From a phage: a stretch of DNA of 64,000 nt. Positions within the stretch are counted from its first letter, which is position 1, and the number at the start of each line of letters is the position of its first letter. Shown here in pieces: positions 1 through 64,000 of this stretch. The notes under the pieces are model-generated. The model saw only the letters and a list, made by a program, of their open reading frames with translations. It had not been told where the DNA came from and ran no database searches. The stretch lies in the NCBI GenBank assembly GCA_036253495.1, contig GCA_036253495.1_4125.1; one strand, given 5' to 3'. A program made the translations under genes and the position numbers.

Positions 1-20
1 ACCATATAAGGGTAACAGTT

Positions 21-110
21 ATGCACATGAATCCGTTCATAGTAGTAATTGCAATCATTATGGCAGTACAGGCCGTATTAGTTTACTTAAGCAAAGCAGG
101 AGTTATCTAA
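21..110 (+). CDS. hypothetical small hydrophobic peptide (29 aa)
   Basis: ATG21..TAA110 read by eye, below track cutoff; one hydrophobic helix. Confidence 0.25.
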   Translation: MHMNPFIVVIAIIMAVQAVLVYLSKAGVI

Positions 111-111
111 A

Positions 112-285
112 ATGATCCATGTAGAATTATCAGTACTGAAAGATTTGTTTTATCGGATGGGTACTACTGGCGAATATCCGAAGGGTGATACCGCAAAACT
201 TTTTGTATCACTCGACTTATGGCAACGCGAACAATTAGTAACGTCCTGGCGTAAAGGTAAAGCCGACAAGGGGGCCGTAGCATGA
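112..285 (+). CDS. hypothetical protein (57 aa)
   Basis: ATG112..TGA285 read by eye; stop overlaps next ATG. Confidence 0.3.
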   Translation: MIHVELSVLKDLFYRMGTTGEYPKGDTAKLFVSLDLWQREQLVTSWRKGKADKGAVA

Positions 286-431
286 AAGAATACATTTTCG
301 AAGTTACGTTTTTGGGTAAAGGTATGCATCAACTGATACGGTCCAGCGGATACAGTGTTAACCAGGCGTGGAATAACTTAAAACAAATGTACCCGAACGC
401 TATCACATATCGCAACCCTCGCGAGGCATAA
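282..431 (+). CDS. hypothetical protein (49 aa)
   Basis: ATG282..TAA431 read by eye; ATGA coupling. Confidence 0.3.
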   Translation: MKEYIFEVTFLGKGMHQLIRSSGYSVNQAWNNLKQMYPNAITYRNPREA

Positions 432-440
432 AATAAATTG

Positions 441-560
441 AAAAAAGGGATTGACTCCGGTCAGTCCCTTTGCTATTATATACGCATAGAAACAAATTAG
501 CCCACCGGGTGCATAAATGTATCTATTGTTTGCTGGTGGAGGTATTATCTAGTACTGAAA
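441..560. repeat. conserved intergenic element, copy 1 of 3
   Basis: AAAGGGA..TCCCTTT hairpin containing TTGACT-N17-TATTAT, GGGTGCATAAATGTATCTA box, GCTGGTGG at 532-539; near-identical at 3745 and 6823. Confidence 0.75.
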
Positions 561-578
561 ACTATTTTTAAAAAGTAC

Positions 579-645
579 TTGCATTGTACTTAGAATCAAG
601 TATAATGTTTTACATCAGGACGGGGAATGAAACAAGTAACCCCGT
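579..645 (+). promoter_or_regulatory. sigma70-like early promoter + 5' stem-loop
   Basis: -35 TTGCAT 579-584, -10 TATAAT 601-606, A/T-rich upstream, hairpin ACGGGG..CCCCGT 620-645. Confidence 0.6.
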
Positions 646-694
646 TAAGTAGTCCAGGAGTAAGACATAAGAAAACCTCCCCTGATAAAATAGT

Positions 695-722
695 TTGACA
701 ATAGAAAGTAAACGAGTATAAT
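695..722 (+). promoter_or_regulatory. sigma70-like promoter
   Basis: TTGACA 695-700, 16-nt spacer, TATAAT 717-722. Confidence 0.55.
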
Positions 723-754
723 ACTTACATCAACCACTGATAAGGAAACATAAA

Positions 755-1030
755 ATGCGGATTCTACTGACAGCTAACGAAATCGAGCAAGTACTGACTA
801 CTAACCTGGAACAATGGAAACGTGATGCAGATATCCAGGCGGTACAATGGCTTAACGATAAGTTAACGCCAGATGACTTAAGCAAGATTGTTGACCCTCA
901 ATTCTATGAAGATATTCACGACACGGCTTTAAGCGTCGAGGATGTACTTGATAAGCACTACATTGATATTGATTTGCAGGTTTACGGTCGTAAAAACTTT
1001 ATCACTATTCACGACATTTACAATACTTAA
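755..1030 (+). CDS. hypothetical early protein
   Basis: track ORF 91 aa; promoter upstream. Confidence 0.65.
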   Translation: MRILLTANEIEQVLTTNLEQWKRDADIQAVQWLNDKLTPDDLSKIVDPQFYEDIHDTALSVEDVLDKHYIDIDLQVYGRKNFITIHDIYNT

Positions 1031-1033
1031 GTA

Positions 1034-1092
1034 TTGACAAAGTATCTTAGTACTGTATAATAGTTTACATCAAGAGGGGAATGGTTCCCCTC
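1034..1092 (+). promoter_or_regulatory. sigma70-like early promoter + 5' stem-loop
   Basis: TTGACA 1034-1039, TATAAT 1056-1061, hairpin GAGGGGAATGGTTCCCCTC 1074-1092. Confidence 0.7.
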
Positions 1093-1115
1093 CTAACAAA
1101 GAGAGAGAAATAAAA

Positions 1116-1298
1116 ATGGCTAAGTGCACTATCTGTAAGAAAGAAATCGTATTAGTTCCAAGTGCCCGTGAACGTGCCGCTCGGTTCGGTGGCAAAGCGT
1201 CAGACTATACAAAAATGTTTACTGCCCATGCAGATTGCCAGGTAGCAAAACGTTCACAAGAAAGCGTAGAATTAATGCGTAAACTTTCCAAAAAATAA
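1116..1298 (+). CDS. hypothetical small Cys-containing protein
   Basis: track ORF 60 aa; SD GAGAGAGAAA; CxxC..HxxC. Confidence 0.65.
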   Translation: MAKCTICKKEIVLVPSARERAARFGGKASDYTKMFTAHADCQVAKRSQESVELMRKLSKK

Positions 1299-1302
1299 GT
1301 AT

Positions 1303-1363
1303 TGACAAAGTATCTTAGTACTGTATAATAGTTTACATCAAGTGAGGGGAATGGTTCCCCTCC
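1303..1363 (+). promoter_or_regulatory. sigma70-like early promoter + 5' stem-loop
   Basis: TTGACA 1303-1308, TATAAT 1325-1330, hairpin 1345-1363; same cassette as 1034. Confidence 0.7.
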
Positions 1364-1385
1364 TAACTAAAAGAGAGAAATAAAA

Positions 1386-1709
1386 ATGGCTATGATCCTC
1401 ACCCAGAAAGTAGAACTGAAAATTGTAACATCCTTTGACATTAAAGTTAATCGGTGGACTGATTCACACGGCAATACTTACCACTCTTGCTACGTGTCTG
1501 CGTTAATTGGCGACCGCTGGGAGGATTTAGGACATGAAACCTTTACTTACGGTTACGGCACACAAGGCGAATACACGGGCTTGGAGATCATTAAAGAAAC
1601 GGTTATAGGTTTCAACCCGAAAGAAAAAGTTATTCATCAAATAGAAAAAGAGATCAACAAAGAAATAACAGTTCGCTACAACGATGTAAAACGTAAGAAA
1701 GACATGTAA
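1386..1709 (+). CDS. hypothetical early protein
   Basis: track ORF 107 aa; cassette promoter+SD. Confidence 0.7.
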   Translation: MAMILTQKVELKIVTSFDIKVNRWTDSHGNTYHSCYVSALIGDRWEDLGHETFTYGYGTQGEYTGLEIIKETVIGFNPKEKVIHQIEKEINKEITVRYNDVKRKKDM

Positions 1710-1731
1710 TAGAATCCATTTAAAGTACTAT

Positions 1732-1760
1732 TTGACATTGCCCAGATAGTACTTTATAAT
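1732..1760 (+). promoter_or_regulatory. sigma70-like promoter
   Basis: TTGACA 1732-1737, 17-nt spacer, TATAAT 1755-1760. Confidence 0.6.
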
Positions 1761-1795
1761 AGACTCTAGCTTGTAGTACTAACTTAACTAATAGG

Positions 1796-2200
1796 ATGTA
1801 TACCATGATTACTAAATTCTACGCTACCCGTGAAGCTGCCCGTATTGTTGCACGCGAGGAAGGAGCAGCATTTAAAGACATGGGCACGACCGCACCGAAA
1901 GGCCAACGCTGGGCCGTACAGTTCAAAGAAATCTCTGATATTGTGAATTCACCTGAACCAGTACTAACAGCAGCAGAACAGAAGAAAGCTGATGAACTGT
2001 CAGCAGTACTTAACGCTCAAGATGAATTTATCGCGGGTTCTGATATCAAAGTACAGGTAAATGCTAATGCATGGACTCACGCGGATCACCTGGCTAACCT
2101 GAAGCGTCCAAGTGAACTGGTTCGCAACCAGAAAGAGATCCGACACGACCGTAAGGGTAATCGTGTAACAGTATACAGTAAACGCCGCCAGGTTATCTAA
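1796..2200 (+). CDS. hypothetical protein
   Basis: track ORF 134 aa (alt start ATG 1805). Confidence 0.65.
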   Translation: MYTMITKFYATREAARIVAREEGAAFKDMGTTAPKGQRWAVQFKEISDIVNSPEPVLTAAEQKKADELSAVLNAQDEFIAGSDIKVQVNANAWTHADHLANLKRPSELVRNQKEIRHDRKGNRVTVYSKRRQVI

Positions 2201-2222
2201 TAACTTGCAGTACTAACAACAC

Positions 2223-2248
2223 GGCGGGATCAGTTCCCGCCTTTTTTA
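2223..2248 (+). terminator. rho-independent terminator
   Basis: GGCGGGATCAGTTCCCGCC hairpin then TTTTTT. Confidence 0.75.
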
Positions 2249-2262
2249 TAGGATAAACTAAA

Positions 2263-2517
2263 ATGATTAAGGTACAACTATCTAAAGATAATATCTTGCG
2301 GGTACACTATAAAGCCCCTCAGAGAATCATCACAAAGGCCGTACAGCTTGCTAATGAGTTTATTAATGGTAATCTATTGCCCAGGAAGTTAAGCAACGGC
2401 AAACTGCGTGTAATCGATGTAGACACTAACAACAGGATAGTAATCGAGAATACCGGAAAGATAAACCTCTATGAACACCAACAATATAATAAGAAAATAA
2501 AACTAATATCACGTTGA
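2263..2517 (+). CDS. hypothetical protein
   Basis: track ORF 84 aa. Confidence 0.55.
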   Translation: MIKVQLSKDNILRVHYKAPQRIITKAVQLANEFINGNLLPRKLSNGKLRVIDVDTNNRIVIENTGKINLYEHQQYNKKIKLISR

Positions 2518-2542
2518 CAGTACTCAATTGTTTTAGTACTAT
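2514..2542 (+). promoter_or_regulatory. sigma70-like promoter
   Basis: TTGACA 2514-2519, 17-nt spacer, TACTAT 2537-2542. Confidence 0.55.
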
Positions 2543-2570
2543 GTATCTATACCAACACGGGAGAAACAAA

Positions 2571-2789
2571 ATGAAATTATCTAAAATCGAAAAGAAAACT
2601 ATTGATGAAGCAGTTAAGCACGGTTATACCTTTCGTAATGATTCACATTTTACCAATTTTCAACAAGGGTATCGTACTATTAAAAAACTAATTGACAAAG
2701 GTTTATTAGTTAAAGTAGATAACGGTAACGGCGTGGAGTATCAGCCAACACAAGACGCATTATCTTTAAAGAAATATGCAATTATCTAA
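2571..2789 (+). CDS. hypothetical protein (72 aa)
   Basis: track ORF begins at TTG inside promoter; SD GGGAGA + ATG 2571 preferred. Confidence 0.65.
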   Translation: MKLSKIEKKTIDEAVKHGYTFRNDSHFTNFQQGYRTIKKLIDKGLLVKVDNGNGVEYQPTQDALSLKKYAII

Positions 2790-2818
2790 TTGACAGTACT
2801 CAAATGTTTTAGTACTAT
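2790..2818 (+). promoter_or_regulatory. sigma70-like promoter
   Basis: TTGACA 2790-2795, 17-nt spacer, TACTAT 2813-2818; paralogous to 2514 promoter. Confidence 0.55.
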
Positions 2819-2854
2819 ATGTACATACCAACACGGAATAACTGGAGAAACAAA

Positions 2855-3082
2855 ATGATTAATATCTTAGAACGCATCAAAGAAACTACTACGCTGGTGG
2901 ATCTACTCAATGTACTGACTTTTAAAGTAACTCGGTTTAGTACTCCTGAATTTATCAACCTCATTGATAGTAAAGGTGAATACCGCATCACTATTGAAAA
3001 TGGTCGTGCTAATGTATTCAGTACTAAATCAGGTAAAACCGCAATTCATTCTGTAATTGCAAATAAAACTGTTGCAATCTAA
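2855..3082 (+). CDS. hypothetical protein (75 aa)
   Basis: SD GGAGAAA + ATG 2855; track start 2819 lies in promoter. Confidence 0.65.
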   Translation: MINILERIKETTTLVDLLNVLTFKVTRFSTPEFINLIDSKGEYRITIENGRANVFSTKSGKTAIHSVIANKTVAI

Positions 3083-3131
3083 TTAGTACTAACATATAAT
3101 AGTCACATCAAGGCAGGGAATACCTCCCTGC
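3072..3131 (+). promoter_or_regulatory. sigma70-like promoter + 5' stem-loop
   Basis: TTGCAA 3072-3077, TATAAT 3095-3100, hairpin GCAGGGA..TCCCTGC 3113-3131. Confidence 0.6.
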
Positions 3132-3151
3132 TATCTTAAAGAGTAAATGCA

Positions 3152-3736
3152 ATGCGTAATTATACTAAATTCATCCGGGCACTGGCAGAAATGGAAACTA
3201 ACAAAGAGATCCTTACAGCTTGTCGGTTGGCTGGTCTGGAGATCATCGGGGCCGGATCATCCCGTATCGTATTCGCTTTAAATGATCGGTTAGTGATTAA
3301 GGTCGCTAATTGTGACGCTGGCGTAGAACAAAATGAAACAGAATGTAAGGTATGGAATTTTTTAGATTATGACCGCCCTCACCTTAAACAGTACTTTGCT
3401 AAGGTGCATATGCATTTAAGCGATCCTGATAATATGTTTATTGTTATGGATCGTTTGAGTACTGCAAGCAAAGGCAGTGTAAAGCACGTTAACGCTTGCA
3501 ATGAATTAAAGTACAATGTCAAACGTAACACTATTGAACGCCAACACCATTTCGCTGATGCACTACAACACGTTGATGATACCTTATCAACACTAACGAT
3601 AAGAGATATCAGAAAGCAGAACATAGGCCAAGATCGCAATGGCCTGATTAAAGTACTTGATTACGGTTTAACCCGCAATATCTGGAATCAGTACTATAAA
3701 CAACGCGACGTAAAAGCCGTAACTATAACACGATAA
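3152..3736 (+). CDS. putative protein-kinase-like protein (atypical small Ser/Thr kinase fold)
   Basis: IIGAGSSRIVF (Gly-loop), VIKV (Lys), IRDIRKQN (catalytic loop), VLDYG (DFG-like) in kinase order. Confidence 0.45.
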   Translation: MRNYTKFIRALAEMETNKEILTACRLAGLEIIGAGSSRIVFALNDRLVIKVANCDAGVEQNETECKVWNFLDYDRPHLKQYFAKVHMHLSDPDNMFIVMDRLSTASKGSVKHVNACNELKYNVKRNTIERQHHFADALQHVDDTLSTLTIRDIRKQNIGQDRNGLIKVLDYGLTRNIWNQYYKQRDVKAVTITR

Positions 3737-3744
3737 AAAAGATT

Positions 3745-3870
3745 AAAAAAGGGATTGACTCCAGTCAGTCCCTTTGCTATTATATAGTCATTGAGAGATA
3801 ACTCACTGACCCATAGGGTGCATAAGTGTATCTATAATATAAGTATTGTCAGTACTGAAAACTATTTTAA
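3745..3870. repeat. conserved intergenic element, copy 2 of 3
   Basis: same hairpin/promoter-like module and GGGTGCATAAGTGTATCTA box as 441-560; no GCTGGTGG in this copy. Confidence 0.75.
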
Positions 3871-3878
3871 AAAAGTAC

Positions 3879-3940
3879 TTGCATTGTACTTAGAATCAAG
3901 TATAATGTTTTATATCGAGAGGGGGAAACGGTTCTCCCTG
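3879..3940 (+). promoter_or_regulatory. sigma70-like early promoter + 5' stem-loop
   Basis: TTGCAT 3879-3884, TATAAT 3901-3906, hairpin ~3919-3938; identical to 579-606. Confidence 0.7.
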
Positions 3941-3958
3941 GCAATAAGGAATAAAATC

Positions 3959-4180
3959 ATGACTACAATGACTTGCATTTACGCTTCCAATCTTCTGAAT
4001 GATGCGGCCTTTAATGTTGATTCAGAATATCAATGTTATCGGGATGAAAATAAAAAAGTTTTTGTAGTTGATAATAATGGTTTCCATATTGAATTGCAAT
4101 CCGGCTTCACTGGCGTTGATGGTAAATCAGTATGGGGCGTACAGGATGATAAAGGTACATATCATTTTAAACGTAATTAA
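3959..4180 (+). CDS. hypothetical early protein (73 aa)
   Basis: SD AAGGAATAAA + ATG 3959; track start 3791 spans promoter. Confidence 0.65.
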   Translation: MTTMTCIYASNLLNDAAFNVDSEYQCYRDENKKVFVVDNNGFHIELQSGFTGVDGKSVWGVQDDKGTYHFKRN

Positions 4181-4183
4181 GTA

Positions 4184-4242
4184 TTGACAAAGTATCTTAG
4201 TACTGTATAATAGTTTACATCAAGGGGAGAATAGTTCTCCCC
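4184..4242 (+). promoter_or_regulatory. sigma70-like early promoter + 5' stem-loop
   Basis: TTGACA 4184-4189, TATAAT 4206-4211, hairpin GGGGAGAATAGTTCTCCCC 4224-4242. Confidence 0.7.
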
Positions 4243-4263
4243 GATACTAAAAGGAATAAAATC

Positions 4264-4671
4264 ATGACTACTACTAATCAAGCTCGGTCCATCGCCAACG
4301 ATAAAAATCATGCTGCAATGGTCGCTGGTTACATTGAAGCTATGCAATTCAGTACTGTACACAATGAGAACGGCGAATACCTGGAAGATTATGAATTATC
4401 AGAGCAAGCCCATCAAGCGGCAGTGATTGCATGTTCACGTTTCCTTGCTGTACATGGTGAAGATATGGAAACAGTACAAAAACACCATAATCCTGATTAT
4501 ACTTATAATCATGCAGGTCATGATCTCTTTCTTACTCGCGAAGGTCACGGTACTGGCTTTTGGGATCGTGATATCGGTCACTATGACGATGTATTCACTA
4601 AGTACTGCGAAGAAATCAACGTTTGCGATCCCTATGTAGGCGATGATAATCTAATCTATATGGGCGAATAA
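4264..4671 (+). CDS. hypothetical early protein (His/Asp-rich)
   Basis: track ORF 135 aa; cassette promoter + SD AAAAGGAATAAA. Confidence 0.7.
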   Translation: MTTTNQARSIANDKNHAAMVAGYIEAMQFSTVHNENGEYLEDYELSEQAHQAAVIACSRFLAVHGEDMETVQKHHNPDYTYNHAGHDLFLTREGHGTGFWDRDIGHYDDVFTKYCEEINVCDPYVGDDNLIYMGE

Positions 4672-4677
4672 AAGTAC

Positions 4678-4736
4678 TTGACAAAGTATATCAGTACTGT
4701 ATAATAGTTTACATCAAGGGGAGAATAGTTCTCCCC
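4678..4736 (+). promoter_or_regulatory. sigma70-like early promoter + 5' stem-loop
   Basis: TTGACA 4678-4683, TATAAT 4700-4705, hairpin 4718-4736. Confidence 0.7.
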
Positions 4737-4758
4737 ACCAATAAAAGGAAACAACATT

Positions 4759-5031
4759 ATGTCAAGCTACTCCGCTACTATGATCATTAAAGATATGAAC
4801 GGTAATCCTACTTCTGCTGGTGGATCATTTGGAAACATTAACTTAGATGGTCGGTTATCAATGGAATCAGCCATCAATGCAGCGAAAGAAGTTTTTAAGA
4901 ATGAATGTACTGTAAGCAAGCTAGATTATATGGGCTTCGCTATCGAGAAAACTAAACGTTTTGTGGACTACAAAAATCCACTAATGATTGATACTAACCT
5001 GAAAGCTAACGAAGTGGAATACTTATTATGA
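4759..5031 (+). CDS. hypothetical early protein
   Basis: track ORF 90 aa; SD AAAAGGAAAC. Confidence 0.7.
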   Translation: MSSYSATMIIKDMNGNPTSAGGSFGNINLDGRLSMESAINAAKEVFKNECTVSKLDYMGFAIEKTKRFVDYKNPLMIDTNLKANEVEYLL

Positions 5032-5219
5032 CAGTTGAAGAAGTTAAAAAAGTACTGGCAGTACTACGCTATCATAATCATTGCAAGGTGAAGAATGATC
5101 CTGATTATGTTGATTCATCCCTGGAGGAAGACACCTTAAACGCGATAAGCCATATGCAAACATTAGCAAAGCGTATGACCGAAAAGAATAGGCCGGACTA
5201 TATCGGAAATAAAATTTAA
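5028..5219 (+). CDS. hypothetical protein
   Basis: track ORF 63 aa; ATGA overlap with previous. Confidence 0.6.
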   Translation: MTVEEVKKVLAVLRYHNHCKVKNDPDYVDSSLEEDTLNAISHMQTLAKRMTEKNRPDYIGNKI

Positions 5220-5226
5220 AAAGTAC

Positions 5227-5288
5227 TTGCATTGTAGTTAGATTAAAGTATAATGTTTTATATCGAGAGGGGGAAATGGTTTCCCCTC
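5227..5288 (+). promoter_or_regulatory. sigma70-like early promoter + 5' stem-loop
   Basis: TTGCAT 5227-5232, TATAAT 5249-5254, hairpin GAGGGGGAAATGGTTTCCCCTC. Confidence 0.7.
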
Positions 5289-5306
5289 AAGTCCAGGAGA
5301 TACACC

Positions 5307-5570
5307 ATGAACACTATCGAAATCACTATTAATGCTCACGTATACGACAACGTAGTACTGCAAACTACTATGACCGCTAACGATACCAGTACTTTGCGGA
5401 ATACTGTTATAAGTGCTGTATGTGCCGCTATCGGTGATGTATCCCTGGAAAATGCAGAACACATCAACAACGGTTTCACTATGTGCAAACGTGATAACGC
5501 AAAACATATCATCGTAGAAGGTTACGGCGGTGTAGAATATAACCTTTATATGAAAAAAGTACTTGCATAG
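5307..5570 (+). CDS. hypothetical early protein (87 aa)
   Basis: SD AGGAGA + ATG 5307; track start 5253 is in promoter. Confidence 0.65.
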   Translation: MNTIEITINAHVYDNVVLQTTMTANDTSTLRNTVISAVCAAIGDVSLENAEHINNGFTMCKRDNAKHIIVEGYGGVEYNLYMKKVLA

Positions 5571-5619
5571 TAACTAAAACAAAGTATAATGTTTTGCATA
5601 GGGGGAGATATCCTCCCCC
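5563..5619 (+). promoter_or_regulatory. sigma70-like early promoter + 5' stem-loop
   Basis: TTGCAT 5563-5568, TATAAT 5585-5590, hairpin GGGGGAGATATCCTCCCCC 5601-5619. Confidence 0.7.
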
Positions 5620-5638
5620 ACTAATAAGGAGTACTACG

Positions 5639-5863
5639 ATGGCTAATCATGATGAACTGATTCGGGAAGTAGCTAACCTGGCGGCAGAAAAGAAATCATT
5701 TGATTCTATCTATAACACCGCTCACCGTGATTCAGTACTGGCATGTAATCAGGATCAAAAAGATGAACTGATCGCAACCTATCATGAAGCATGGAAGTAT
5801 TACCGTCAATGGGAGAAAGAAGAAAAAGCATCAACCATAAGAGGATTAAATAATCTAGTATAA
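5639..5863 (+). CDS. hypothetical early protein (74 aa)
   Basis: SD TAAGGAG + ATG 5639; track start 5594 is in hairpin. Confidence 0.65.
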   Translation: MANHDELIREVANLAAEKKSFDSIYNTAHRDSVLACNQDQKDELIATYHEAWKYYRQWEKEEKASTIRGLNNLV

Positions 5864-5915
5864 CAATAAAAGGGGATGATAATATCCCCTTAATAATTTC
5901 TATAATAGGTTAACA

Positions 5916-6182
5916 ATGAAAAAGAAAACAACATATCGCTATAATAAAAATTATCAATCCGTTGTATTAGATCACTCTATGCTCCCGCTCGTTGTCCCTG
6001 CCGTTGGTGTAGTCTATCAATCCATATACTGGTCAAGGAAACAACAAAAGTACTTAAAAGGCCCACTAGCACGTTATGAGGGTAACGGTGTATGGTCCGA
6101 TCCGTTACATCCAATCACTACGCGTTATATTGAATATTTTCCTTATTGTGACTACATTGAAATACATCCTAAATTTAATTGA
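5916..6182 (+). CDS. hypothetical protein, paralog of 6263-6520
   Basis: track ORF 88 aa; shared LP..P..G..Y....W......Y.....Y.GNG.W.DP..PI pattern. Confidence 0.65.
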   Translation: MKKKTTYRYNKNYQSVVLDHSMLPLVVPAVGVVYQSIYWSRKQQKYLKGPLARYEGNGVWSDPLHPITTRYIEYFPYCDYIEIHPKFN

Positions 6183-6187
6183 TAGTA

Positions 6188-6241
6188 TTGACAGTACTAA
6201 CTGATAGTGTATAATGTTTTGCATAGGGGGAATACTCCCCC
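6188..6241 (+). promoter_or_regulatory. sigma70-like early promoter + 5' stem-loop
   Basis: TTGACA 6188-6193, TATAAT 6210-6215, hairpin GGGGGAATACTCCCCC 6226-6241. Confidence 0.7.
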
Positions 6242-6262
6242 AATATTAAAAGGGGAATCATC

Positions 6263-6520
6263 ATGGAACAATTCACACAATATCGGGTAAATCCTCAAGC
6301 TATGGCCTACGTAGAAGACCATAAAACGTTACCAGTACTGCAACCAGTTAAAGGCCGTATCTATCGTGGCCTTGCATGGAATACGGCCCAGGATGGATAT
6401 AAAACCGTTGCCGTGGGGATGTATTGCGGGAATGGTGAATGGTTTGATCCTAACAATCCGATTGCACTTGACAGTACTGAAAAAATGAAATGGGCCGACT
6501 ATATCGAGGATATCTCATAA
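6263..6520 (+). CDS. hypothetical protein, paralog of 5916-6182
   Basis: track ORF 85 aa; cassette promoter. Confidence 0.7.
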   Translation: MEQFTQYRVNPQAMAYVEDHKTLPVLQPVKGRIYRGLAWNTAQDGYKTVAVGMYCGNGEWFDPNNPIALDSTEKMKWADYIEDIS

Positions 6521-6526
6521 AACTAT

Positions 6527-6588
6527 TTGACAGTACTATCATATAGTGTATAATGTTTTACATAGAGCGGGGGAATAGTTCTCCCGCC
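6527..6588 (+). promoter_or_regulatory. sigma70-like early promoter + 5' stem-loop
   Basis: TTGACA 6527-6532, TATAAT 6549-6554, hairpin ~6565-6588. Confidence 0.7.
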
Positions 6589-6609
6589 AATAGTTTGGAG
6601 TAAAACATT

Positions 6610-6810
6610 ATGTCAATCGCTATCGCCCTGGTTGAAGTACTGAAAGAAGCTAAAGCTAACCTGATCGACGTAAAGATCCAGGAACTACAATCCGGCTTAA
6701 TCGGCTGTACTTGTACCGCTGGTGGGGCGACAGATTATCGTGAATTCGAATCACTCGAATCTATGGTTCGGTATCTTACAATGATCGTGGAAGATTGGAA
6801 GATCATCTAA
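6610..6810 (+). CDS. hypothetical early protein
   Basis: track ORF 66 aa; SD TTTGGAG. Confidence 0.65.
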   Translation: MSIAIALVEVLKEAKANLIDVKIQELQSGLIGCTCTAGGATDYREFESLESMVRYLTMIVEDWKII

Positions 6811-6822
6811 CAAAAAAGAATA

Positions 6823-6960
6823 AAAAAAGGGATTGACTCCGGTCAGTCCCTTTGCTATTATATACGCATAGACAAAAACTAGCCCACAGGGTGCATAGGT
6901 GTATCTAAAATATATAGTTAATAACGGTGAGTAACTATCTGCTGGTGGAGTGAAAACTAT
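6823..6960. repeat. conserved intergenic element, copy 3 of 3
   Basis: same module as 441-560; GGGTGCATAGGTGTATCTA; GCTGGTGG at 6941-6948. Confidence 0.75.
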
Positions 6961-6973
6961 TAATAAAAAACTA

Positions 6974-7002
6974 TTGACAAAGTATAGCAGTACTGCAATA
7001 AT
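6974..7002 (+). promoter_or_regulatory. sigma70-like promoter
   Basis: TTGACA 6974-6979, 17-nt spacer, AATAAT 6997-7002 (weaker -10). Confidence 0.5.
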
Positions 7003-7055
7003 GTATCTCGTAGGGCGGCAATGGTGCGACGGTCCACAAAGTTAGGAGATTCAAA

Positions 7056-7388
7056 ATGAGTACTTCAATCGCTATCGTAAACGCTTTCATCCGTACCAAT
7101 GTTTCATCTGTATTCATTGACGGGCTGGATCGGGAAGTAGAATACTCAATCATTATCGCACAAACTGCAAACGGTGCTCGGTATATCCTCAATGATAGTG
7201 AAGCAAATCACTACTACTACACTAAAGCTACTGGCTTTAAACGCATCGATGCGGACGTAGTATACGCTAAGATGAATAAGCTGGTAGACAAGATTAACGC
7301 TAAAGGTACTATCGATTTACAGTACTGGACCGAAACCGATCCAGAATATGGATCACATCGCTACCTGAATCCAGGTATTAAAATGTAA
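7056..7388 (+). CDS. hypothetical protein
   Basis: track ORF 110 aa; SD TTAGGAGA. Confidence 0.65.
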   Translation: MSTSIAIVNAFIRTNVSSVFIDGLDREVEYSIIIAQTANGARYILNDSEANHYYYTKATGFKRIDADVVYAKMNKLVDKINAKGTIDLQYWTETDPEYGSHRYLNPGIKM

Positions 7389-7395
7389 AAAGTAC

Positions 7396-7458
7396 TTGCA
7401 TAGTACTTAGTAAAGTGTATAATGTTTTACATAGAGAGGGGGAAATGGTTCTCCCTCC
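7396..7458 (+). promoter_or_regulatory. sigma70-like early promoter + 5' stem-loop
   Basis: TTGCAT 7396-7401, TATAAT 7418-7423, hairpin GAGGGGGAAATGGTTCTCCCTC. Confidence 0.7.
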
Positions 7459-7477
7459 TAAATTAAGGAGTTTTATC

Positions 7478-7879
7478 ATGACCTTCTCAATCACTTCTTA
7501 CGCTGACGTTTTAGTACTGGCTCGGACTTTTGGTAAAGATGCACTGGAGTACGCTGTAAGTAATGGTACTATCCAACCGGAGCAGTGCCGCATCATTGGA
7601 AACTGCAAACGTTGGGCGGTATCCAATACTATTGCACTGGAAAACTTCAACGATGGCAACAATGAATATTCTGTTGATGTAGTATTCGAAGCCGTTGATC
7701 TCGGCGGTATCTATAACACTAACCTGAATGATGTGCGTATCGTTCGCACGGGGTTCGGTGCTTATGATGTATCTATTCGTGAAGCTATGAACACCGGATA
7801 CATTAGCAAGGACTTACTTGCTCACATCATGCAGCTGTGGACGGAACGTAACGAAGCACGCACTATCTTAGGACTGTAA
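7478..7879 (+). CDS. hypothetical early protein (133 aa)
   Basis: SD TAAGGAG + ATG 7478; track start 7415 is in the -10. Confidence 0.65.
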   Translation: MTFSITSYADVLVLARTFGKDALEYAVSNGTIQPEQCRIIGNCKRWAVSNTIALENFNDGNNEYSVDVVFEAVDLGGIYNTNLNDVRIVRTGFGAYDVSIREAMNTGYISKDLLAHIMQLWTERNEARTILGL

Positions 7880-7903
7880 GCATTACACATCACCAAACAT
7901 CAT

Positions 7904-7923
7904 AGGCCGCTCTCTAGCGGCCT
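7904..7923 (+). other. GC-rich stem-loop without T-tract
   Basis: AGGCCGCTCTCTAGCGGCCT perfect inverted repeat; mRNA-stability or processing site candidate. Confidence 0.4.
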
Positions 7924-7947
7924 TAACTATATCAGGAGTACACACAC

Positions 7948-8157
7948 ATGATCTATACAGTATACAGCGTTCTAGGTACTATTGCAGGCGTACACGATAA
8001 CGTCAATGATGCTATGCGTACAGTACTGCAACAGGTTCCACTAAAGCCTAAGACTATTAAGCAGATGACAGCACGACTAACCAGGGCAAAGGCTGGCGGT
8101 GAAGTCTGGCAGGACTACGCGGATACGCAGATTATCATTGCAGTAAGTAATGATTAA
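7948..8157 (+). CDS. hypothetical protein
   Basis: track ORF 69 aa; SD CAGGAG. Confidence 0.6.
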   Translation: MIYTVYSVLGTIAGVHDNVNDAMRTVLQQVPLKPKTIKQMTARLTRAKAGGEVWQDYADTQIIIAVSND

Positions 8158-8202
8158 TGAATTAAATGATTCAGTACTAAAACTATTAGTCAGAAAATAA
8201 TC

Positions 8203-8231
8203 GGTGCATTTTTAAAATGCATCGTTTTTTA
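8203..8231 (+). terminator. rho-independent terminator
   Basis: GGTGCATT..AATGCATC hairpin then GTTTTTT. Confidence 0.6.
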
Positions 8232-8339
8232 TTTTAACCAGTACACTATAACGTATGAAATAGTTTCGACCTGTTATTATAACTTAGGGCAACTAGGGGC
8301 GGGTAATTGCTTAGCTCGTGTGAAGGGGTTCATAGGGTA

Positions 8340-8369
8340 TTGACTTTTTATATGAATCGTGTATTATAT
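8340..8369 (+). promoter_or_regulatory. sigma70-like promoter of the GTNYQ-family array
   Basis: TTGACT 8340-8345, TATTAT 8362-8367. Confidence 0.5.
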
Positions 8370-8397
8370 GATTGATATTAATTTTAAGGGAGTCCCT

Positions 8398-8595
8398 ATG
8401 CGTATTTTAACACAAGAAGAGCATCACGAAAGACTTATCAATAACATGGCTATGATAATGTATAAGTCTCATAAACGTGGTAATGCCTATAAACGTGAAT
8501 TAGTTATGGAACTATTCTTAGGAACTAACTTACAAAATGAATATGTTAAACTATATGTAAAAGAGTTATGTTTAGAGATAAATGGTAAACTATGA
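8398..8595 (+). CDS. GTNYQ-family small protein
   Basis: SD AAGGGAG + ATG 8398; motif LFLGTNLQ. Confidence 0.7.
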   Translation: MRILTQEEHHERLINNMAMIMYKSHKRGNAYKRELVMELFLGTNLQNEYVKLYVKELCLEINGKL

Positions 8596-8792
8596 AAATG
8601 CGTACATTAACTCAAGATGAATATCATCATATACTACGTAAAAACACGGCAAGAATTTACCAAAGCAATGTGCACTTAGAAAGAGTTGAGTTGTACCTGT
8701 TGATTACGATGGGAACAAACTATCAGGAAGTGTGGATAACTCACTATTTGGAATCTTTGAAAGCTGACATACGAGCTAGGAGAAAACTATGA
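8592..8792 (+). CDS. GTNYQ-family small protein
   Basis: track ORF; TMGTNYQ; ATGA coupling; near-duplicate of 8789-8989. Confidence 0.75.
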   Translation: MKMRTLTQDEYHHILRKNTARIYQSNVHLERVELYLLITMGTNYQEVWITHYLESLKADIRARRKL

Positions 8793-8989
8793 AAATGCGT
8801 ACATTAACCGAAAAAGAATATCAAGCTCTACTACGTAAAAACATGGTAAGGATTTACCAAAGCGATGTGCACTTAGAAAGAGTTGAGTTGTACCTTTTGA
8901 TTACAATGGGAACCAACTATCAGGAAGCATTGATATCGAAATATTTGGAATCTTTGAAAGCTGACATACGAGCGAGGTGCAAACATTGA
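8789..8989 (+). CDS. GTNYQ-family small protein
   Basis: track ORF; TMGTNYQ; near-duplicate of 8592-8792. Confidence 0.75.
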   Translation: MKMRTLTEKEYQALLRKNMVRIYQSDVHLERVELYLLITMGTNYQEALISKYLESLKADIRARCKH

Positions 8990-9195
8990 AAATCATAACA
9001 CAGACACAAGCATTTGGTCGTATATTGAAATACCTTGATGACATGATAGATATACATAGTGACCTCCCTAAAACTGTAATCGACGCCAAAAGAGCAGAAT
9101 ATCGCATGATGGCTGTACTGAACACAAACTTTCAGGAAGAGTATGTCAATGATTGGATTGGATTTTTAATTGAAGATATAAAGAGTAAACTATGA
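8986..9195 (+). CDS. GTNYQ-family small protein
   Basis: TTG 8986 after SD GAGGTG (track uses GTG 8977); motif LNTNFQ. Confidence 0.6.
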   Translation: MKIITQTQAFGRILKYLDDMIDIHSDLPKTVIDAKRAEYRMMAVLNTNFQEEYVNDWIGFLIEDIKSKL

Positions 9196-9404
9196 TTATA
9201 TTAACACCAGAGCAATATAGGAAACGTTACAATTCTAAGCAGATTGAAATCTTGCTGATATATGCAGACAGGGATGATGTATACTTATCAAAAGTTATGG
9301 AAAAAGAATTACTTATGGGTGTCTTCTTAGGAACTGACCACCAGAAATCTTATGTCCAAGAGTATCTAATAGCTCTTGAGAAATACATCAGGAGTAAACT
9401 ATGA
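9192..9404 (+). CDS. GTNYQ-family small protein
   Basis: track ORF; FLGTDHQ; ATGA coupling. Confidence 0.7.
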   Translation: MIILTPEQYRKRYNSKQIEILLIYADRDDVYLSKVMEKELLMGVFLGTDHQKSYVQEYLIALEKYIRSKL

Positions 9405-9625
9405 ACTGCATTAATAACTTTGAATACGAGGCTCGCTCAAGGTGTGCATCTCAAAAAGAGAACCACATTTACTTCACTATGATGTACTTATCTTGGAATG
9501 AAATTGAAGAAATGGTTGCTGAAGTATGGCTGTTTGAATTCATGGGGACGCAGTATCAGAATAGGTTTGTGGGTGAGTATCTTAATGTTCTTATGAAACA
9601 TATAGAAAGAAAGGGAATGAACTAA
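9401..9625 (+). CDS. GTNYQ-family small protein
   Basis: track ORF; FMGTQYQ. Confidence 0.7.
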   Translation: MNCINNFEYEARSRCASQKENHIYFTMMYLSWNEIEEMVAEVWLFEFMGTQYQNRFVGEYLNVLMKHIERKGMN

Positions 9626-9876
9626 TGAAAGTATTATCAAGCACTGAGTATCAATCTGCCCTATTCTCTTTACTAAACACCCTTCGCAAGAACAATGAAC
9701 TTTATCCTTCCCCTGAGAATGATGTAGTTAATGGTGACGTGTTTCTACTTAAATTCGTTGGAACTAATAAACAAGATATCTTCACTGATCGTTATATCAA
9801 TGCACTAAGAAACCTTGTAGCGTATAAAACCCGCCAGGCCAAAAGAGAATGGAAGAGACAATGCGATCCAGAATAA
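9625..9876 (+). CDS. GTNYQ-family small protein
   Basis: track ORF; FVGTNKQ. Confidence 0.7.
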   Translation: MKVLSSTEYQSALFSLLNTLRKNNELYPSPENDVVNGDVFLLKFVGTNKQDIFTDRYINALRNLVAYKTRQAKREWKRQCDPE

Positions 9877-10109
9877 ATCACATCATGTACGTTAAACTAT
9901 TTCAGAAACTAATCCACAAACACTATGATACAGTATCTGATAAACTCACTAATGATATCAGCAGACTTATTCACTGTGAAGCAGAGATGCTTGTACTGAT
10001 GACGGGAGACGATACACAAACAATCTCTAAGGCAATAGAGAACTATCTGGAAGCATATCAACAACATATAAGAACGGAAGTCTGGAGACGAGAGAATGAA
10101 AATCCTTAG
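9861..10109 (+). CDS. GTNYQ-family small protein (divergent)
   Basis: ATG 9861 (track 9849); degenerate motif MTGDDTQ. Confidence 0.55.
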   Translation: MRSRINHIMYVKLFQKLIHKHYDTVSDKLTNDISRLIHCEAEMLVLMTGDDTQTISKAIENYLEAYQQHIRTEVWRRENENP

Positions 10110-12955: not shown

Positions 12956-12957
12956 AA

Positions 12958-13299: not shown

Positions 13300-13302
13300 A
13301 CC

Positions 13303-13533: not shown

Positions 13534-13582
13534 TGCTATAGTGTCAGTACTTTTTCGAGCGTTAAAATATAGGGTACAGATT

Positions 13583-13828: not shown

Positions 13829-13835
13829 TGCGATA

Positions 13836-14162: not shown

Positions 14163-14171
14163 GAGATTAAT

Positions 14172-15479: not shown

Positions 15480-15490
15480 GGAAACAAAAT

Positions 15491-57861: not shown

Positions 57862-57889
57862 GGGATCAGTACTGATCCCTTTTCTTTTA
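57862..57889 (+). terminator. rho-independent terminator
   Basis: GGGATCAGTACTGATCCC hairpin then TTTTCTTTT. Confidence 0.75.
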
Positions 57890-61384: not shown

Positions 61385-61728
61385 TGGTTCCGTTATCATC
61401 TGAACTAAGGTACTTCGAATCTCTCCTTGATCTTCAATCAGAATTCGTTAGTACCTTAAAAAATAAATTAATAGGCAAAAAAGTAAAATTCACTCAAGAG
61501 TATATTGACCACATCAATAAGGCTAAGGAGGATGAAGTAGATTCTGACTGGATTTATTGTGATGATGAAGCTTCTCATATCAACGAAAATACAGTTATGT
61601 TTATTACTTTGTTGCGAGTAAAGAATTCATCAATCTATGTTGATGTTGAATATGAAAATCCAAAAAGTTCTGAATGGTACGGATTCACTTACCGTTTAGA
61701 TCGTTTAGAACTAATAGAAGAGGAATAA
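61384..61728 (+). CDS. KYIGK-family small protein
   Basis: track ORF; NKLIGKKV. Confidence 0.65.
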   Translation: MVPLSSELRYFESLLDLQSEFVSTLKNKLIGKKVKFTQEYIDHINKAKEDEVDSDWIYCDDEASHINENTVMFITLLRVKNSSIYVDVEYENPKSSEWYGFTYRLDRLELIEEE

Positions 61729-61971
61729 ATGATTTTATTTTTTGCTTTGTATGGTGTAGGAGTACTGAGTACATTTATCAGTACTTTTCTTATCATCAAT
61801 TGGGGTTCTTTTAAAGATACCCCTACCACAATGATTAATATTAGTACCTGCTCTATGTTATCAGTACTGTGGCCTGTGTCGTTGGTGTATCTTTTCATTT
61901 CAATCTGTAAAGATTTTTACGATACACTAACAAAATTCAAGAAGAAGAAACATGACAAAGACGGAAATTGA
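61729..61971 (+). CDS. small membrane protein (two TM helices)
   Basis: track ORF 80 aa. Confidence 0.55.
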   Translation: MILFFALYGVGVLSTFISTFLIINWGSFKDTPTTMINISTCSMLSVLWPVSLVYLFISICKDFYDTLTKFKKKKHDKDGN

Positions 61972-62206
61972 ACAGTTAAAGATGTTACAATCGTTATCTG
62001 ATGATTTTGTCCAACGTGCTAAGCACAAATATATTGGTCAAGAAATTCTTCTTAAACACTCCAGAGGTTGGCAAAAAATATGCATAAGAGATATGGGAAC
62101 ATATTATGGTGATGTGCGATATTACGTAGATTGCTATGTTAATGACCAAATTGCCAATACTCAAGTTGTCACCTATGATAAAATTATATGGATTAAAGAA
62201 CAATGA
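61952..62206 (+). CDS. KYIGK-family small protein
   Basis: track ORF; HKYIGQEI. Confidence 0.65.
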   Translation: MTKTEIEQLKMLQSLSDDFVQRAKHKYIGQEILLKHSRGWQKICIRDMGTYYGDVRYYVDCYVNDQIANTQVVTYDKIIWIKEQ

Positions 62207-62946
62207 AACATTTCTTAGAAGTAACAGTTCCTGATGAAAAAGATTTGTATATAGTAGGAGACATTCACGGTAATGCAAAACTATGGGAACATACCAAGAA
62301 AGAATTTGGTATTACTCCTGAAGATTATGTATTCAGTTTAGGCGATTTAATTGACAGAGGTGAGCAAAGTGCTCACCTTTTGTTTGAGTTTTTATTCGCT
62401 GAGAATCGATATATGATCATGGGCAATCATGAATCGATGTGTATTGATTCTGCAACTCATCGTGACTGGTATCATTGCTGGACACAGAATGGGGGCGATA
62501 AGTTCCTGGAAGAAGTTGGTGTATCAGGAGTGGAATTCTTCCGTCAGTACTTGAACCAGCTACCTATGATTATCCAAATCAATCACAGAGGACTCAAGAT
62601 TGGCCTCGTACATGCAAGTGTAGACCTTAAGCACACTGACTGGAATAAGTTCATTACTGGGACAAAATCAATGTCCAGTGATACAATTGAGTCATGCCTA
62701 TGGGACAGAAAGACATTTGATTTCTGTAAAGCTAACAACGTCTTTAATGCACCACGTATTGCTAACGTCGATTACGTTCTTAGTGGTCATACCGCTGTGT
62801 TTGATCCCCTAATTTATGGAAACCGTATCTGGATTGACAGTCAGTTCCTTACTGGTGATTTGACTATTGCTACCCCACAAGGTGGTAAGATGCGTTATTT
62901 GCGTAAAGAAAAAGACGAATATTCATTCAGTCGATTCAAAAGGTAA
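62203..62946 (+). CDS. PPP-family Ser/Thr protein phosphatase (lambda-phosphatase-like metallophosphoesterase)
   Basis: GDIHGN, GDLIDRG, GNHE motifs in canonical order; ATGA coupling. Confidence 0.85.
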   Translation: MKHFLEVTVPDEKDLYIVGDIHGNAKLWEHTKKEFGITPEDYVFSLGDLIDRGEQSAHLLFEFLFAENRYMIMGNHESMCIDSATHRDWYHCWTQNGGDKFLEEVGVSGVEFFRQYLNQLPMIIQINHRGLKIGLVHASVDLKHTDWNKFITGTKSMSSDTIESCLWDRKTFDFCKANNVFNAPRIANVDYVLSGHTAVFDPLIYGNRIWIDSQFLTGDLTIATPQGGKMRYLRKEKDEYSFSRFKR

Positions 62947-62951
62947 TTATT

Positions 62952-63230
62952 ATGCATGACATGATTGATAGTGCATTAACCGAATTTAACTTTTTTAAAA
63001 AATCACTCGATACAATAATCAATGATACCAACCAACAAATGAAAGACCATTTAAGTGATAAATTGGTTGGTCGTTGGGTTGAGCTACCATATATAGATGG
63101 AACTACTGTTGGTGTGATTCATAGAATTGTAACAATTCATGAAGTGAAGGTGTATGTTGAAATTTTGGTTGACAATGAAACTAACAAATGTTTTGTACAA
63201 TTAAGCACTGAAGATTTAACTTTTTTATAA
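62952..63230 (+). CDS. KYIGK-family small protein
   Basis: track ORF; DKLVGRWV. Confidence 0.65.
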   Translation: MHDMIDSALTEFNFFKKSLDTIINDTNQQMKDHLSDKLVGRWVELPYIDGTTVGVIHRIVTIHEVKVYVEILVDNETNKCFVQLSTEDLTFL

Positions 63231-63239
63231 GGATATAAA

Positions 63240-63467
63240 ATGAAAGTAATTTATGTTCAGGTTGAAAAATATCAAACTGAAGATGGTCGCATTTTTGATT
63301 CAGCTAAACAAGCTGAGCATCATGAACGTATTATTTCTGGTGTTCGTCGCATTTGTCCTAAATGTAACGGAACACAACAAGTTCCCGATGAAGAATTTCG
63401 TCGCTATTATGCATGTCCAGATTGTGATGGTAAAGGATATGTAGAAAAACAAGAGGTATGGAAGTGA
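63240..63467 (+). CDS. small CxxCxGxG zinc-finger protein
   Basis: track ORF 75 aa; CPKCNGTQ and CPDCDGKG. Confidence 0.65.
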   Translation: MKVIYVQVEKYQTEDGRIFDSAKQAEHHERIISGVRRICPKCNGTQQVPDEEFRRYYACPDCDGKGYVEKQEVWK

Positions 63468-63877
63468 AACTATATTGCTTAACAAACATGTACTGTCAGG
63501 GTGTTCAGGCTGGCATTCAGGCATTTCATGCTGGTATTAAACTCGTCAAAGATTATGAAGGTTCAGTATTCAGTACTCTAATCGATGAATGGTATAATGA
63601 GCACGAAACTATTGTAATTCTCAATGCTGGCAACCAAGATAAATTAACCACTCATTACGAGAATCTATCCAAACAGGGCAAGGTTCCATTTGCTAAATTC
63701 AATGAACCAGGTTTGAACGATACCCTCACTAGTGTAGCAGTACTATGCACTGAAGAAATGATTGATGACATGGCACTGATGCGTACTAACGACCCAATGA
63801 CTGATTTACAGCTATGTCACAAATACGGTCATATGTACGAAACACTAAAAGCTATGAGTACAATGAGGACTATTTGA
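63458..63877 (+). CDS. hypothetical protein
   Basis: track ORF 139 aa. Confidence 0.6.
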   Translation: MEVKLYCLTNMYCQGVQAGIQAFHAGIKLVKDYEGSVFSTLIDEWYNEHETIVILNAGNQDKLTTHYENLSKQGKVPFAKFNEPGLNDTLTSVAVLCTEEMIDDMALMRTNDPMTDLQLCHKYGHMYETLKAMSTMRTI

Positions 63878-64000
63878 TGAATTTTCCTGAAAAGATTTTC
63901 GTCGCAAGACGTTTTGTTAGTGGGGATCAGGTTGACGGATATATTATCGACGCAACTAAAATGCACACTAAAGCATTTGAAACTAAGAAAGAACGTGTTG
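63877..64000 (+). CDS. hypothetical protein, 3'-truncated by window edge
   Basis: ATG 63877 overlapping previous stop; open to end of window. Confidence 0.45.
   Translation, partial: MNFPEKIFVARRFVSGDQVDGYIIDATKMHTKAFETKKERV

Follow-up and report, generated by a model that had tools for sequence, protein, structure and literature searches.

The palindrome AGTACT is strongly over-represented in Asteriusvirus and related jumbo phages and may be the recognition site of a phage-encoded DNA-binding factor

Introduction

Why would a phage write the same palindromic hexamer into its DNA hundreds of times, when such hexamers are normally purged from phage genomes? The question is raised by a phage DNA stretch of 64,000 nucleotides (GenBank assembly GCA_036253495.1, contig GCA_036253495.1_4125.1; the whole stretch is called the window here), in which an earlier note, made from the letters alone, had described a strong and genome-wide excess of AGTACT. 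Megablast places the window in the Asteriusvirus group of jumbo coliphages (121Q, PBECO4, slurp01), with Escherichia phage A4 as the nearest record (98.6% identity across most of 20-40 kb). All its genes lie on the plus strand at a coding density of 91%, and neither a tRNA scan nor an Rfam search of the window returned a match. As described below, AGTACT turned out to be the commonest hexamer in genomes of about 350 kb from four genera, to the point of bending protein sequence. In the literature searched we found no report, for these phages, of the AGTACT enrichment or of the GCGC ban and the ACT-free block that accompany it.

Results

AGTACT (1..64000) is present in 213 copies in the window, in all three reading frames and between genes. 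This corresponds to one site per 300 bp overall and one per 158 bp in the first 8.2 kb, the earlier note having estimated one per 150-300 bp. By contrast, 21.5 copies are expected from mononucleotide composition, 18.3±3.9 from 100 dinucleotide shuffles (maximum 28), and 41 and 89 from Markov models of order 2 and order 3, respectively (z=13 for the latter). The word ranks first of all 4,096 hexamers in the window and is also the top hexamer in 350 kb of A4, where we counted 902 copies versus 99 expected. At 9-19 times expectation, it thus shows none of the depletion that restriction avoidance leaves behind.

About 85% of the sites lie inside coding sequence, and codon-aware nulls do not account for them: the 181 in-gene copies compare with 54.9±6.2 after synonymous-codon shuffling within genes (z=20) and with 24.5±4.5 after codon permutation (z=35). 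The excess holds in each reading frame (87/26/68 observed versus 25/11/19 expected), as the earlier note had claimed, and intergenic DNA, which makes up 8.7% of the sequence, carries 32 sites, or 5.8 per kb versus 3.1 per kb in genes. Repeated promoter cassettes and one protein family with an FQxS(T/L) motif had been named as a possible trivial source of the signal; the family block contributes 14 sites and promoter-like contexts about 14, together fewer than 30 of the 213, and the part of the window from 20.6 to 64 kb alone holds 146 sites versus 12.4 expected. The pressure for AGTACT distorts protein sequence, in that S-T dipeptides are twice as frequent as expected (147 versus 74), 87 of the 147 being written AGTACT, and V-L and Q-Y dipeptides are likewise inflated in the window proteins.

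The sequence around the hexamer is symmetric as well. C precedes it (position -1) in 51% of sites and G follows it (+6) in 48%, with a weaker preference for T at -2 and A at +7, giving the extended consensus (T)CAGTACTG(A). In the window, CAGTACTG occurs 55 times versus 0.77 expected and TCAGTACTGA 15 times versus 0.09. In A4 the effects of the flanks multiply per side, from 6x for A..T through 18x for C..A (CAGTACTA) to 48x for C..G (CAGTACTG), whereas G..C flanks (GAGTACTC) abolish the enrichment (1.3x). Half-sites are not enriched in A4, with 1.2-1.6x for CAGTA[A/G/T] versus 8.7x for CAGTAC, and other NGTACN words reach 1-2.4x. The real site is therefore a dyad of 8-10 bp; since the halves show no enrichment, the whole dyad is the functional unit, which argues for recognition of duplex DNA or for two overlapping strand-specific sites. 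Words that differ from AGTACT by a single change carry no deamination signature (AGTATT 1.16x, AATACT 0.98x), and GATC is depleted in the phage (0.59x).

Comparison with relatives shows that the site is under purifying selection. In an alignment with slurp01 (about 88% identical), 51 of 56 AGTACT sites are intact (91%), versus 63% of all hexamers and 61% of those matched in composition. Across six structural genes with orthologues in A4, RaK2 and CBB (60-80% protein identity), we found 12-17 sites per phage, of which only 2-5 positions are common between phages, so that density rather than position is maintained between genera. The view that selection acts at the DNA level rests on the codon-aware excess, the dyad flanks, the conservation above background, the distorted proteins and sites in untranscribed promoter spacers (see below), and on these grounds we agree with the earlier note.

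The earlier note had also called for counts in relatives and in the host. A4 was scanned over 350 kb, other relatives as pieces of 24-50 kb and E. coli K-12 as a sample of 50 kb. AGTACT is enriched in RaK2 of Klebsiella (119 versus 12 expected), GAP32 of Cronobacter (217 versus 11.5) and CBB of Pectobacterium (57 versus 6.5), and is not enriched in the samples of Atu_ph07 (1 versus 3), T4 (12 versus 8.8) or E. coli K-12 (3 versus 4.8). The trait is thus common to the enterobacterial Rak2-like phages (Asteriusvirus, Alcyoneusvirus, Mimasvirus), and this clade pattern points to a factor of the phage lineage rather than to a general E. coli factor. In PA5oct, a relative that infects Pseudomonas, AGTACT is depleted (piece L010, 100-140 kb: 1 versus 11.3, Poisson P ~1.5e-4). 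We considered CTGCAG as an analogous palindrome in PA5oct and dropped it, as it is enriched only 4x and does not form part of any conspicuous 8- or 10-mer.

A second word follows the same phyletic split. GCGC, which we sampled in the whole window and in pieces L001-L007, L008, L009, L011, L014, L016 and L017, is absent from all AGTACT-rich samples (A4, 0 versus 211 expected; GAP32, 0 versus 47; RaK2, 0 versus 33 in two samples; CBB, 0 versus 23) and occurs at normal frequency in PA5oct, Atu_ph07, T4 and E. coli. Zero copies were also counted for about 20 GC-rich palindromes of 6 bp. These absences argue that the DNA is exposed to sequence-specific nucleases and against globally modified, cleavage-proof DNA, so that the chemical protection from cleavage proposed in the earlier note loses its support. 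The absent words suggest a clade-specific set of sequence-specific enzymes.

The sites are unevenly spread along the genomes. The early region of small genes in A4, RaK2, GAP32 and CBB contains 6-8 AGTACT per kb and is about three times denser than the remainder, which has 2-3 per kb (1-2 per kb in structural modules). PhageTerm analysis of phage Sharanji has revealed a direct terminal repeat of 20,668 bp (PMC11895373), and when the window is mapped onto Sharanji, positions 388..20587 (+) correspond to this repeat and probably form the terminal repeat here, too; for CBB, a terminal repeat is known by annotation. The putative repeat has the highest AGTACT density of the window and includes two islands without any site, beyond which AGTACT resumes at 20588. 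The term genome-wide overstates the case, in view of the two conserved islands and the threefold gradient.

Within the early region the palindrome is fused to promoters. Sites separated by 18-23 bp occur as pairs about four times more often than expected, and pairs spaced by 20-22 bp adjoin both core boxes (-35 and -10) of early promoters of the sigma70 type in an architecture, aaaAGTACT|TGACA-N11-13-AGTACT-n-TATAAT with TTGACA or TTGCAA as the -35 box, that is common to four genera and was found at fixed positions in Asteriusvirus, Alcyoneusvirus and two Mimasvirus phages. The strict pattern is present 14 times in the CBB repeat, 10 times in the early region of RaK2, 9 times in GAP32 and 5 times in A4, whereas the opposite strand, PA5oct and T4 have no copy. 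In A4, AGTACT placed 0-1 nt before TATAAT occurs 20 times on the gene strand versus once on the other. In the window, such promoters lie on the plus strand between 1031 and 7055: GTATTGACAAAGTATCTT[AGTACT]GTATAAT at 1031, 1299 and 4181, the dual-site promoter [AGTACT]TGACAAAGTATATC[AGTACT]GTATAAT at 4672, and TTGAC[AGTACT] at 6183 and 6521. Two dyads placed two helical turns apart over the -35 box and the spacer would be what is expected of operators that act by promoter occlusion. The palindrome is also central in a terminator hairpin, GGGATC[AGTACT]GATCCC (57862..57879, +); the occurrences in promoter spacers and in a terminator loop that the earlier note had listed are thus both real.

Of the two islands, island 1 (8179..11977, +) has no AGTACT where about 12 would be expected at the local rate, and its ACT and AGT frequencies are normal. 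It contains six TGTACT, each at the homologous A-V-L position of a tandem family of ~70-aa 'LGTNYQ' genes. Because these copies occupy one homologous position, a founder effect of the tandem array may suffice to explain island 1. The array itself spans 8359-13530 and comprises about 20 overlapping genes of ~70 aa with the L-G-T-N-Y-Q motif, part of which is island 1. An origin or terminus between the islands with mirrored site polarity, which we had considered, was weakened by the position of the TGTACT copies at a single homologous codon of a paralog family.

Island 2 (13800..20587, +) is of a different kind. It has no AGTACT and no GTACT, and it coincides largely with a stretch of 6,471 nt (13798..20267, +; about 17 genes in at least two transcription units) in which the trinucleotide ACT is wholly absent from the coding strand, versus about 122-126 copies expected, while AGT, ACA, ACG and ACC are normal. 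No other trinucleotide has a comparable gap in 350 kb of A4. The ACT-free block is conserved in five Asteriusviruses, across which about 122-138 ACT would be expected, and measures 6,981 nt in A4 (31575-38554), 8,212 nt in slurp01, 8,461 nt in CMSTMSU and 7,649 nt in Sharanji (L011 14117-22327; L017, reverse complement, 8162-16621; L018 444-8091). Island 1 recurs in slurp01, A4 and CMSTMSU, and both gaps are present in A4, slurp01, CMSTMSU and Sharanji; both islands are old parts of the genus. The idea that they are recent foreign DNA was discarded, since both are conserved at ~75-90% identity in all 34 Asteriusvirus records. The ACT-free zone stops about 0.3-0.45 kb short of the inferred repeat boundary. 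The zone is peculiar to Asteriusvirus, there being none in the syntenic region of RaK2, the early region of GAP32 or the CBB repeat, and we therefore rejected it as a general terminal-repeat trait of the clade. Pfam and PHROGs gave no known function for the island proteins, and tblastn with one of them found a match in A4 only.

Where AGTACT is banned, a substitute is enriched. Island 2 carries 46 AGTACA versus 2.9 expected (16x), with the flank preferences of the palindrome. The change from T to A, a transversion, is seen 45 times versus twice for the transition to C, and T follows AGTAC in 0 of 56 cases (P ~1e-9). The large excess of the transversion over the transition indicates that residual recognition is selected for, rather than decay, with AGTACA as the best allowed substitute for AGTACT. 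The absence of one triplet from the sense strand in all frames is what immunity to an mRNA interferase looks like; reviews of interferases list ACA, ACD, UUACU/UAH and GCU as targets, with no ACU-only nuclease among them. The block suggests immunity to an enzyme specific for ACT or ACU, whether a primase, an RNase or a DNase acting on single strands.

Discussion

What, then, reads AGTACT? The class of explanation that fits best is still one of those the earlier note had offered, a functional site for a protein that binds or modifies DNA. As the likeliest reading, which we hold tentatively, we propose that a clade-specific phage factor reads the dyad on duplex DNA. On this proposal (T)CAGTACTG(A) would be the recognition site of a dyad-symmetric factor that reads double-stranded DNA and is encoded by the enterobacterial Rak2-like jumbo phages; the reader would presumably be a phage protein that binds as a dimer, with promoter occlusion on the one hand and genome-wide marking, coating or protection on the other as the outcome. 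In the early region, two sites about two helical turns apart lie beside the -35 and -10 boxes of near-consensus sigma70 promoters, where the bound factor would occlude host RNA polymerase and turn early genes off. The roughly 800 further sites, at 2-3 per kb in coding DNA, would be kept by selection on density and would make the whole phage chromosome the preferred substrate of the same factor. AGTACT would thereby serve as a positive tag of self, given that E. coli DNA carries about one site per 15 kb, and would complement the elimination of GCGC in the clade.

Several observations weigh against this proposal. Multiplicative flank effects are equally expected from independent single-strand sites on each strand, as in the primase model discussed below. 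The banned ACT is one half of the palindrome, which hints at a single-strand reader and is unexplained by a duplex model. Beyond the pairs at 20-22 bp, spacing shows no significant period of 10.5 bp (p=0.135). Promoter-embedded sites make up only about 5% of all AGTACT, so that the role we assign to the other 95% is conjecture. Finally, Pfam and PHROGs searches of about 35 window proteins and 16 A4 proteins yielded no DNA-binding candidate, almost all of the window proteins being unassigned in function.

Other readings have to be set against these data. One of the three DNA methyltransferases of the phage could have AGTACT as its target, with the density of the site selected for an epigenetic function such as strand discrimination for repair, self marking or the timing of transcription or packaging, and with a shield from ScaI/Eco255I-type enzymes; we regard this as rather unlikely, although it is compatible with the favoured reading and the two may coexist. 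The window encodes a candidate modifier, a Dam-family N6-adenine DNA methyltransferase (PF05869; 46952..47479, +), which is followed by a cytidylyltransferase gene (47476-48015, +) and is conserved with this neighbour in RaK2 and, by annotation, in GAP32; an Erwinia jumbo phage has a 43%-identical enzyme. A4_120 (L006 42647-44545) is a C5-cytosine methyltransferase interrupted by an intein with Hint and LAGLIDADG domains, and the Asteriusvirus and CBB papers list 2-3 methyltransferases, whereas the PA5oct paper makes no mention of methylation. A compact palindrome of 6-8 bp is typical of restriction-modification-type enzymes, a tenfold-enriched ScaI site would be very risky if unprotected, and the density of AGTACT, about one per 300-400 bp, is near that of GATC in E. 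coli, which occurs roughly once per 250 bp and is not over-represented overall. On the other side, the candidate enzymes carry no assigned specificity, relatives of PF05869 are abundant in lambdoid and Stx phages, the deamination signature is missing, graded flank preferences are unusual for methyltransferases, and methylation alone leaves the fixed promoter positions unexplained. Very-short-patch-type repair should deplete near-cognate words, which are enriched instead, and conversion of this type was discarded for that reason. A primase is, in our view, an unlikely reader. A DnaG/gp61-type enzyme would recognise 5'-ACT-3' (cryptic T, primer pppGU), AGTACT being the strong site, a template for a pentamer of T4 length (pppGUACU) on both strands at once, and the ACT-free strand would suppress lagging-strand priming and leave a long 3' single-stranded tail for invasion by UvsX/UvsY, in T4-style recombination-dependent replication. 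An absolute, strand-specific ban on a trinucleotide has the grain of primase recognition, ACT has the central pyrimidine of such sites and is half of the palindrome, and AGTACA on the top strand is TGTACT on the bottom strand, so that island 2 keeps bottom-strand sites only. The block also lies close to the inferred repeat boundary, the phage encodes a primase beside a DnaB-like helicase (the A4_45 and A4_46 homologues), together with UvsX, UvsY and gp32, and selection acts on density, not position. However, ACT already occurs about 19 times per kb, so that a tenfold enrichment of the hexamer seems needless; TACT outside GTACT is at 1.07x (by subtraction of counts); the fixed positions at -35 and -10 in four genera are unexplained; the CBB terminal repeat, GAP32 and RaK2 are enriched yet have no ACT-free zone; the final ~320-440 nt of the end contain ACT; and a palindromic primase site needs a 1-in-64 coincidence.

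That the sites bind or titrate an enterobacterial host protein, with filamentation as a possible consequence, is improbable. The nucleoid-occlusion factor SlmA, whose site GTGAGTACTCAC shares the AGTACT core, is an example. The trait is restricted to phages of Enterobacterales, cells infected by Sharanji filament (PMC11895373), and sites are found in immediate-early promoters, which have to function ahead of phage protein synthesis. But T4, which infects the same host, has no enrichment, and SlmA-binding sites were rejected on their flanks: the window has no match to the consensus GTNAGNNCTNAC and the 350 kb of A4 have 4, and the SlmA-type flank GAGTACTC is the sole combination without enrichment. 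A signal at the RNA level, in which AGUACU is the target of an ACU-recognising endoribonuclease or RNA-binding protein that tunes mRNA decay, fastest for early genes, with the ACU-free island immune, seems to us quite improbable. It would account for a ban that lies on the mRNA-sense strand and concerns ACU only and for the highest site density in early genes, and it has a parallel in ACA-less mRNAs, which resist MazF (PMC5408214); the phage also encodes a PIN-PhoH (PhoH2-type) RNase/helicase. A single-stranded RNA reader gives no rationale for dyad symmetry over 8-10 nt, though, nor for promoter-spacer sites upstream of transcription starts or for the enrichment of AGUACA, which lacks ACU, exactly where ACU is banned, and there is no known ACU-only toxin (ChpBK cuts ACD, Kid cuts UUACU). 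Least credible, and highly improbable, is the absence of any function, with AGTACT as a by-product of codon or dipeptide usage, paralogs, promoter cassettes or a neutral bias in mutation or gene conversion. The window does have large paralogous families and repeated cassettes, and island 1 may owe its lack of sites to a founder effect. Against this, codon-aware nulls fail by 20-35 standard deviations, the family block and the cassettes supply few of the sites, the distal part of the window is enriched on its own, the density is kept in structural genes of three genera with the sites differently placed, the sites are conserved above background, and the variant spectrum is not transition-biased.

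Returning to the favoured reading of a duplex-binding phage factor, it is instructive to compare AGTACT with known systems. It lacks the testable defining features of the families we compared, sharing only the fixed and conserved promoter positions of operators, and even from operators, which lie in regulatory regions only, it differs by its presence in coding sequence. Like Chi (GCTGGTGG) and the DUS/USS of Neisseria/Haemophilus, it is a short, many-fold over-represented word that is selected on number and would mark DNA as self; those words, however, are asymmetric, act on one strand and have known readers (RecBCD, ComP), whereas AGTACT is fully palindromic, its flanks being symmetric too, and is fused to promoters, and no reader of it was found. 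E. coli Chi itself is separately enriched, which argues that AGTACT is not the phage's substitute for it in dealing with host RecBCD: A4 has 21 copies on the plus strand versus 2 on the minus strand, with about one per strand expected by a rough chance estimate; eight of the copies are in the early region that maps to the terminal repeat, some within a repeated intergenic cassette. In the window Chi lies at 532, 2893, 4816, 6718 and 6941 (+) and at 46190 (-). The orientation of Chi would stop RecBCD coming from the island-2 end. Dam GATC sites, bound by SeqA and MutH, resemble AGTACT as a palindrome whose density matters and that is read on double-stranded DNA; GATC is methylated and serves strand discrimination, sequestration and promoter control, whereas here a hexamer is raised tenfold to a comparable density, GATC itself is depleted and methylation of AGTACT is hypothetical. 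Phage proteins phi29 p6 and SPO1 TF1 are abundant, cover or organise the chromosome of the phage, favour its DNA over that of the host and lower early promoter activity; p6 reads bendability and TF1 hydroxymethyluracil DNA, and neither uses a palindrome written hundreds of times. The met box of MetJ (AGACGTCT) is an 8-bp dyad read by a small ribbon-helix-helix dimer, adjacent sites acting cooperatively over promoters, but met boxes form few tandem arrays at few promoters whereas AGTACT occurs about 900 times through coding DNA. SlmA sites share with AGTACT the core, an enterobacterial host and the filamentation of infected cells; their outer GT..AC is unmatched in the phage, and their inner flanks, G..C, stand alone in showing no enrichment. 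The ACT-free island, finally, resembles ACA-less mRNAs (MazF) and the single-orientation EcoP15I sites of T7 in shunning a short word altogether or on one strand, as a form of immunity to a sequence-specific nuclease, and differs from the ACA-less set, which is scattered, in being a contiguous block of about 17 genes by the inferred genome end.

Taken further, and doubtful though possible, the data could reflect a two-part sequence code by which Rak2-like jumbo phages, which lack a nucleus, separate their own from the host chromosome. GCGC would be the negative mark, the target of a phage or ubiquitous nuclease; a 50-kb sample of the E. coli host has roughly one copy per 150 bp. The positive mark would be (C)AGTACT(G), enriched 10-50x, which would nucleate a phage protein able to coat, protect or silence the phage DNA and to turn early promoters off. 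In Asteriusviruses a third layer might be added by the ACT-free strand or transcript block by the genome end, which would escape a trinucleotide-specific primase or nuclease. AGTACT looks like a sequence name tag read by a viral protein, a type of signal so far undescribed in phages; if the reader protein were found, it would reveal by what means a jumbo phage without a nucleus marks, organises or protects its DNA and turns its early genes off. The GCGC ban, the ACT-free block of 6.5-8.5 kb and the oriented Chi sites are unusually clean signatures of sequence-specific enzymes, and as several of these phages are under development for phage therapy, the matter has practical relevance and new sequence-specific tools are possible.

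Other features of the window and of A4

The FQxS(T/L) family comprises more than 40 paralogous proteins of ~110-280 aa, encoded between ~13000 and 45200 and at 53591, in which an acidic stretch precedes F-Q-x-S-(T/L)-(V/L/I), e.g. EEYYFQQSTVY. The motif resembles a TEV/3C-type protease cleavage site; the proteins have no Pfam match, and their PHROGs matches are without known function. The gene at 32387-33799 encodes a membrane protein whose signalling domain is that of methyl-accepting chemotaxis proteins (PF00015, E=7e-37). Upstream of the methyltransferase operon, 692 bp (45700-46391) contain no plus-strand ORF of at least 45 aa and have no Rfam match. An RNA-repair pair, a T4 Rnl1-type RNA ligase and a PNK/phosphatase, lies at 54700-57851. 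In A4, the 'PhoH-like' protein A4_475 (L002 49101 - L003 540) has a predicted N-terminal PIN nuclease domain, which makes it a candidate sequence-specific RNase. The phage tRNAs encoded at L007 4019-7088 include Ser(GCU) for AGU, which is used more than any other Ser codon, and Thr(UGU), presumed to read ACA and perhaps, through wobble, ACU. The codons whose use the AGTACT motif raises are AGU and ACU.

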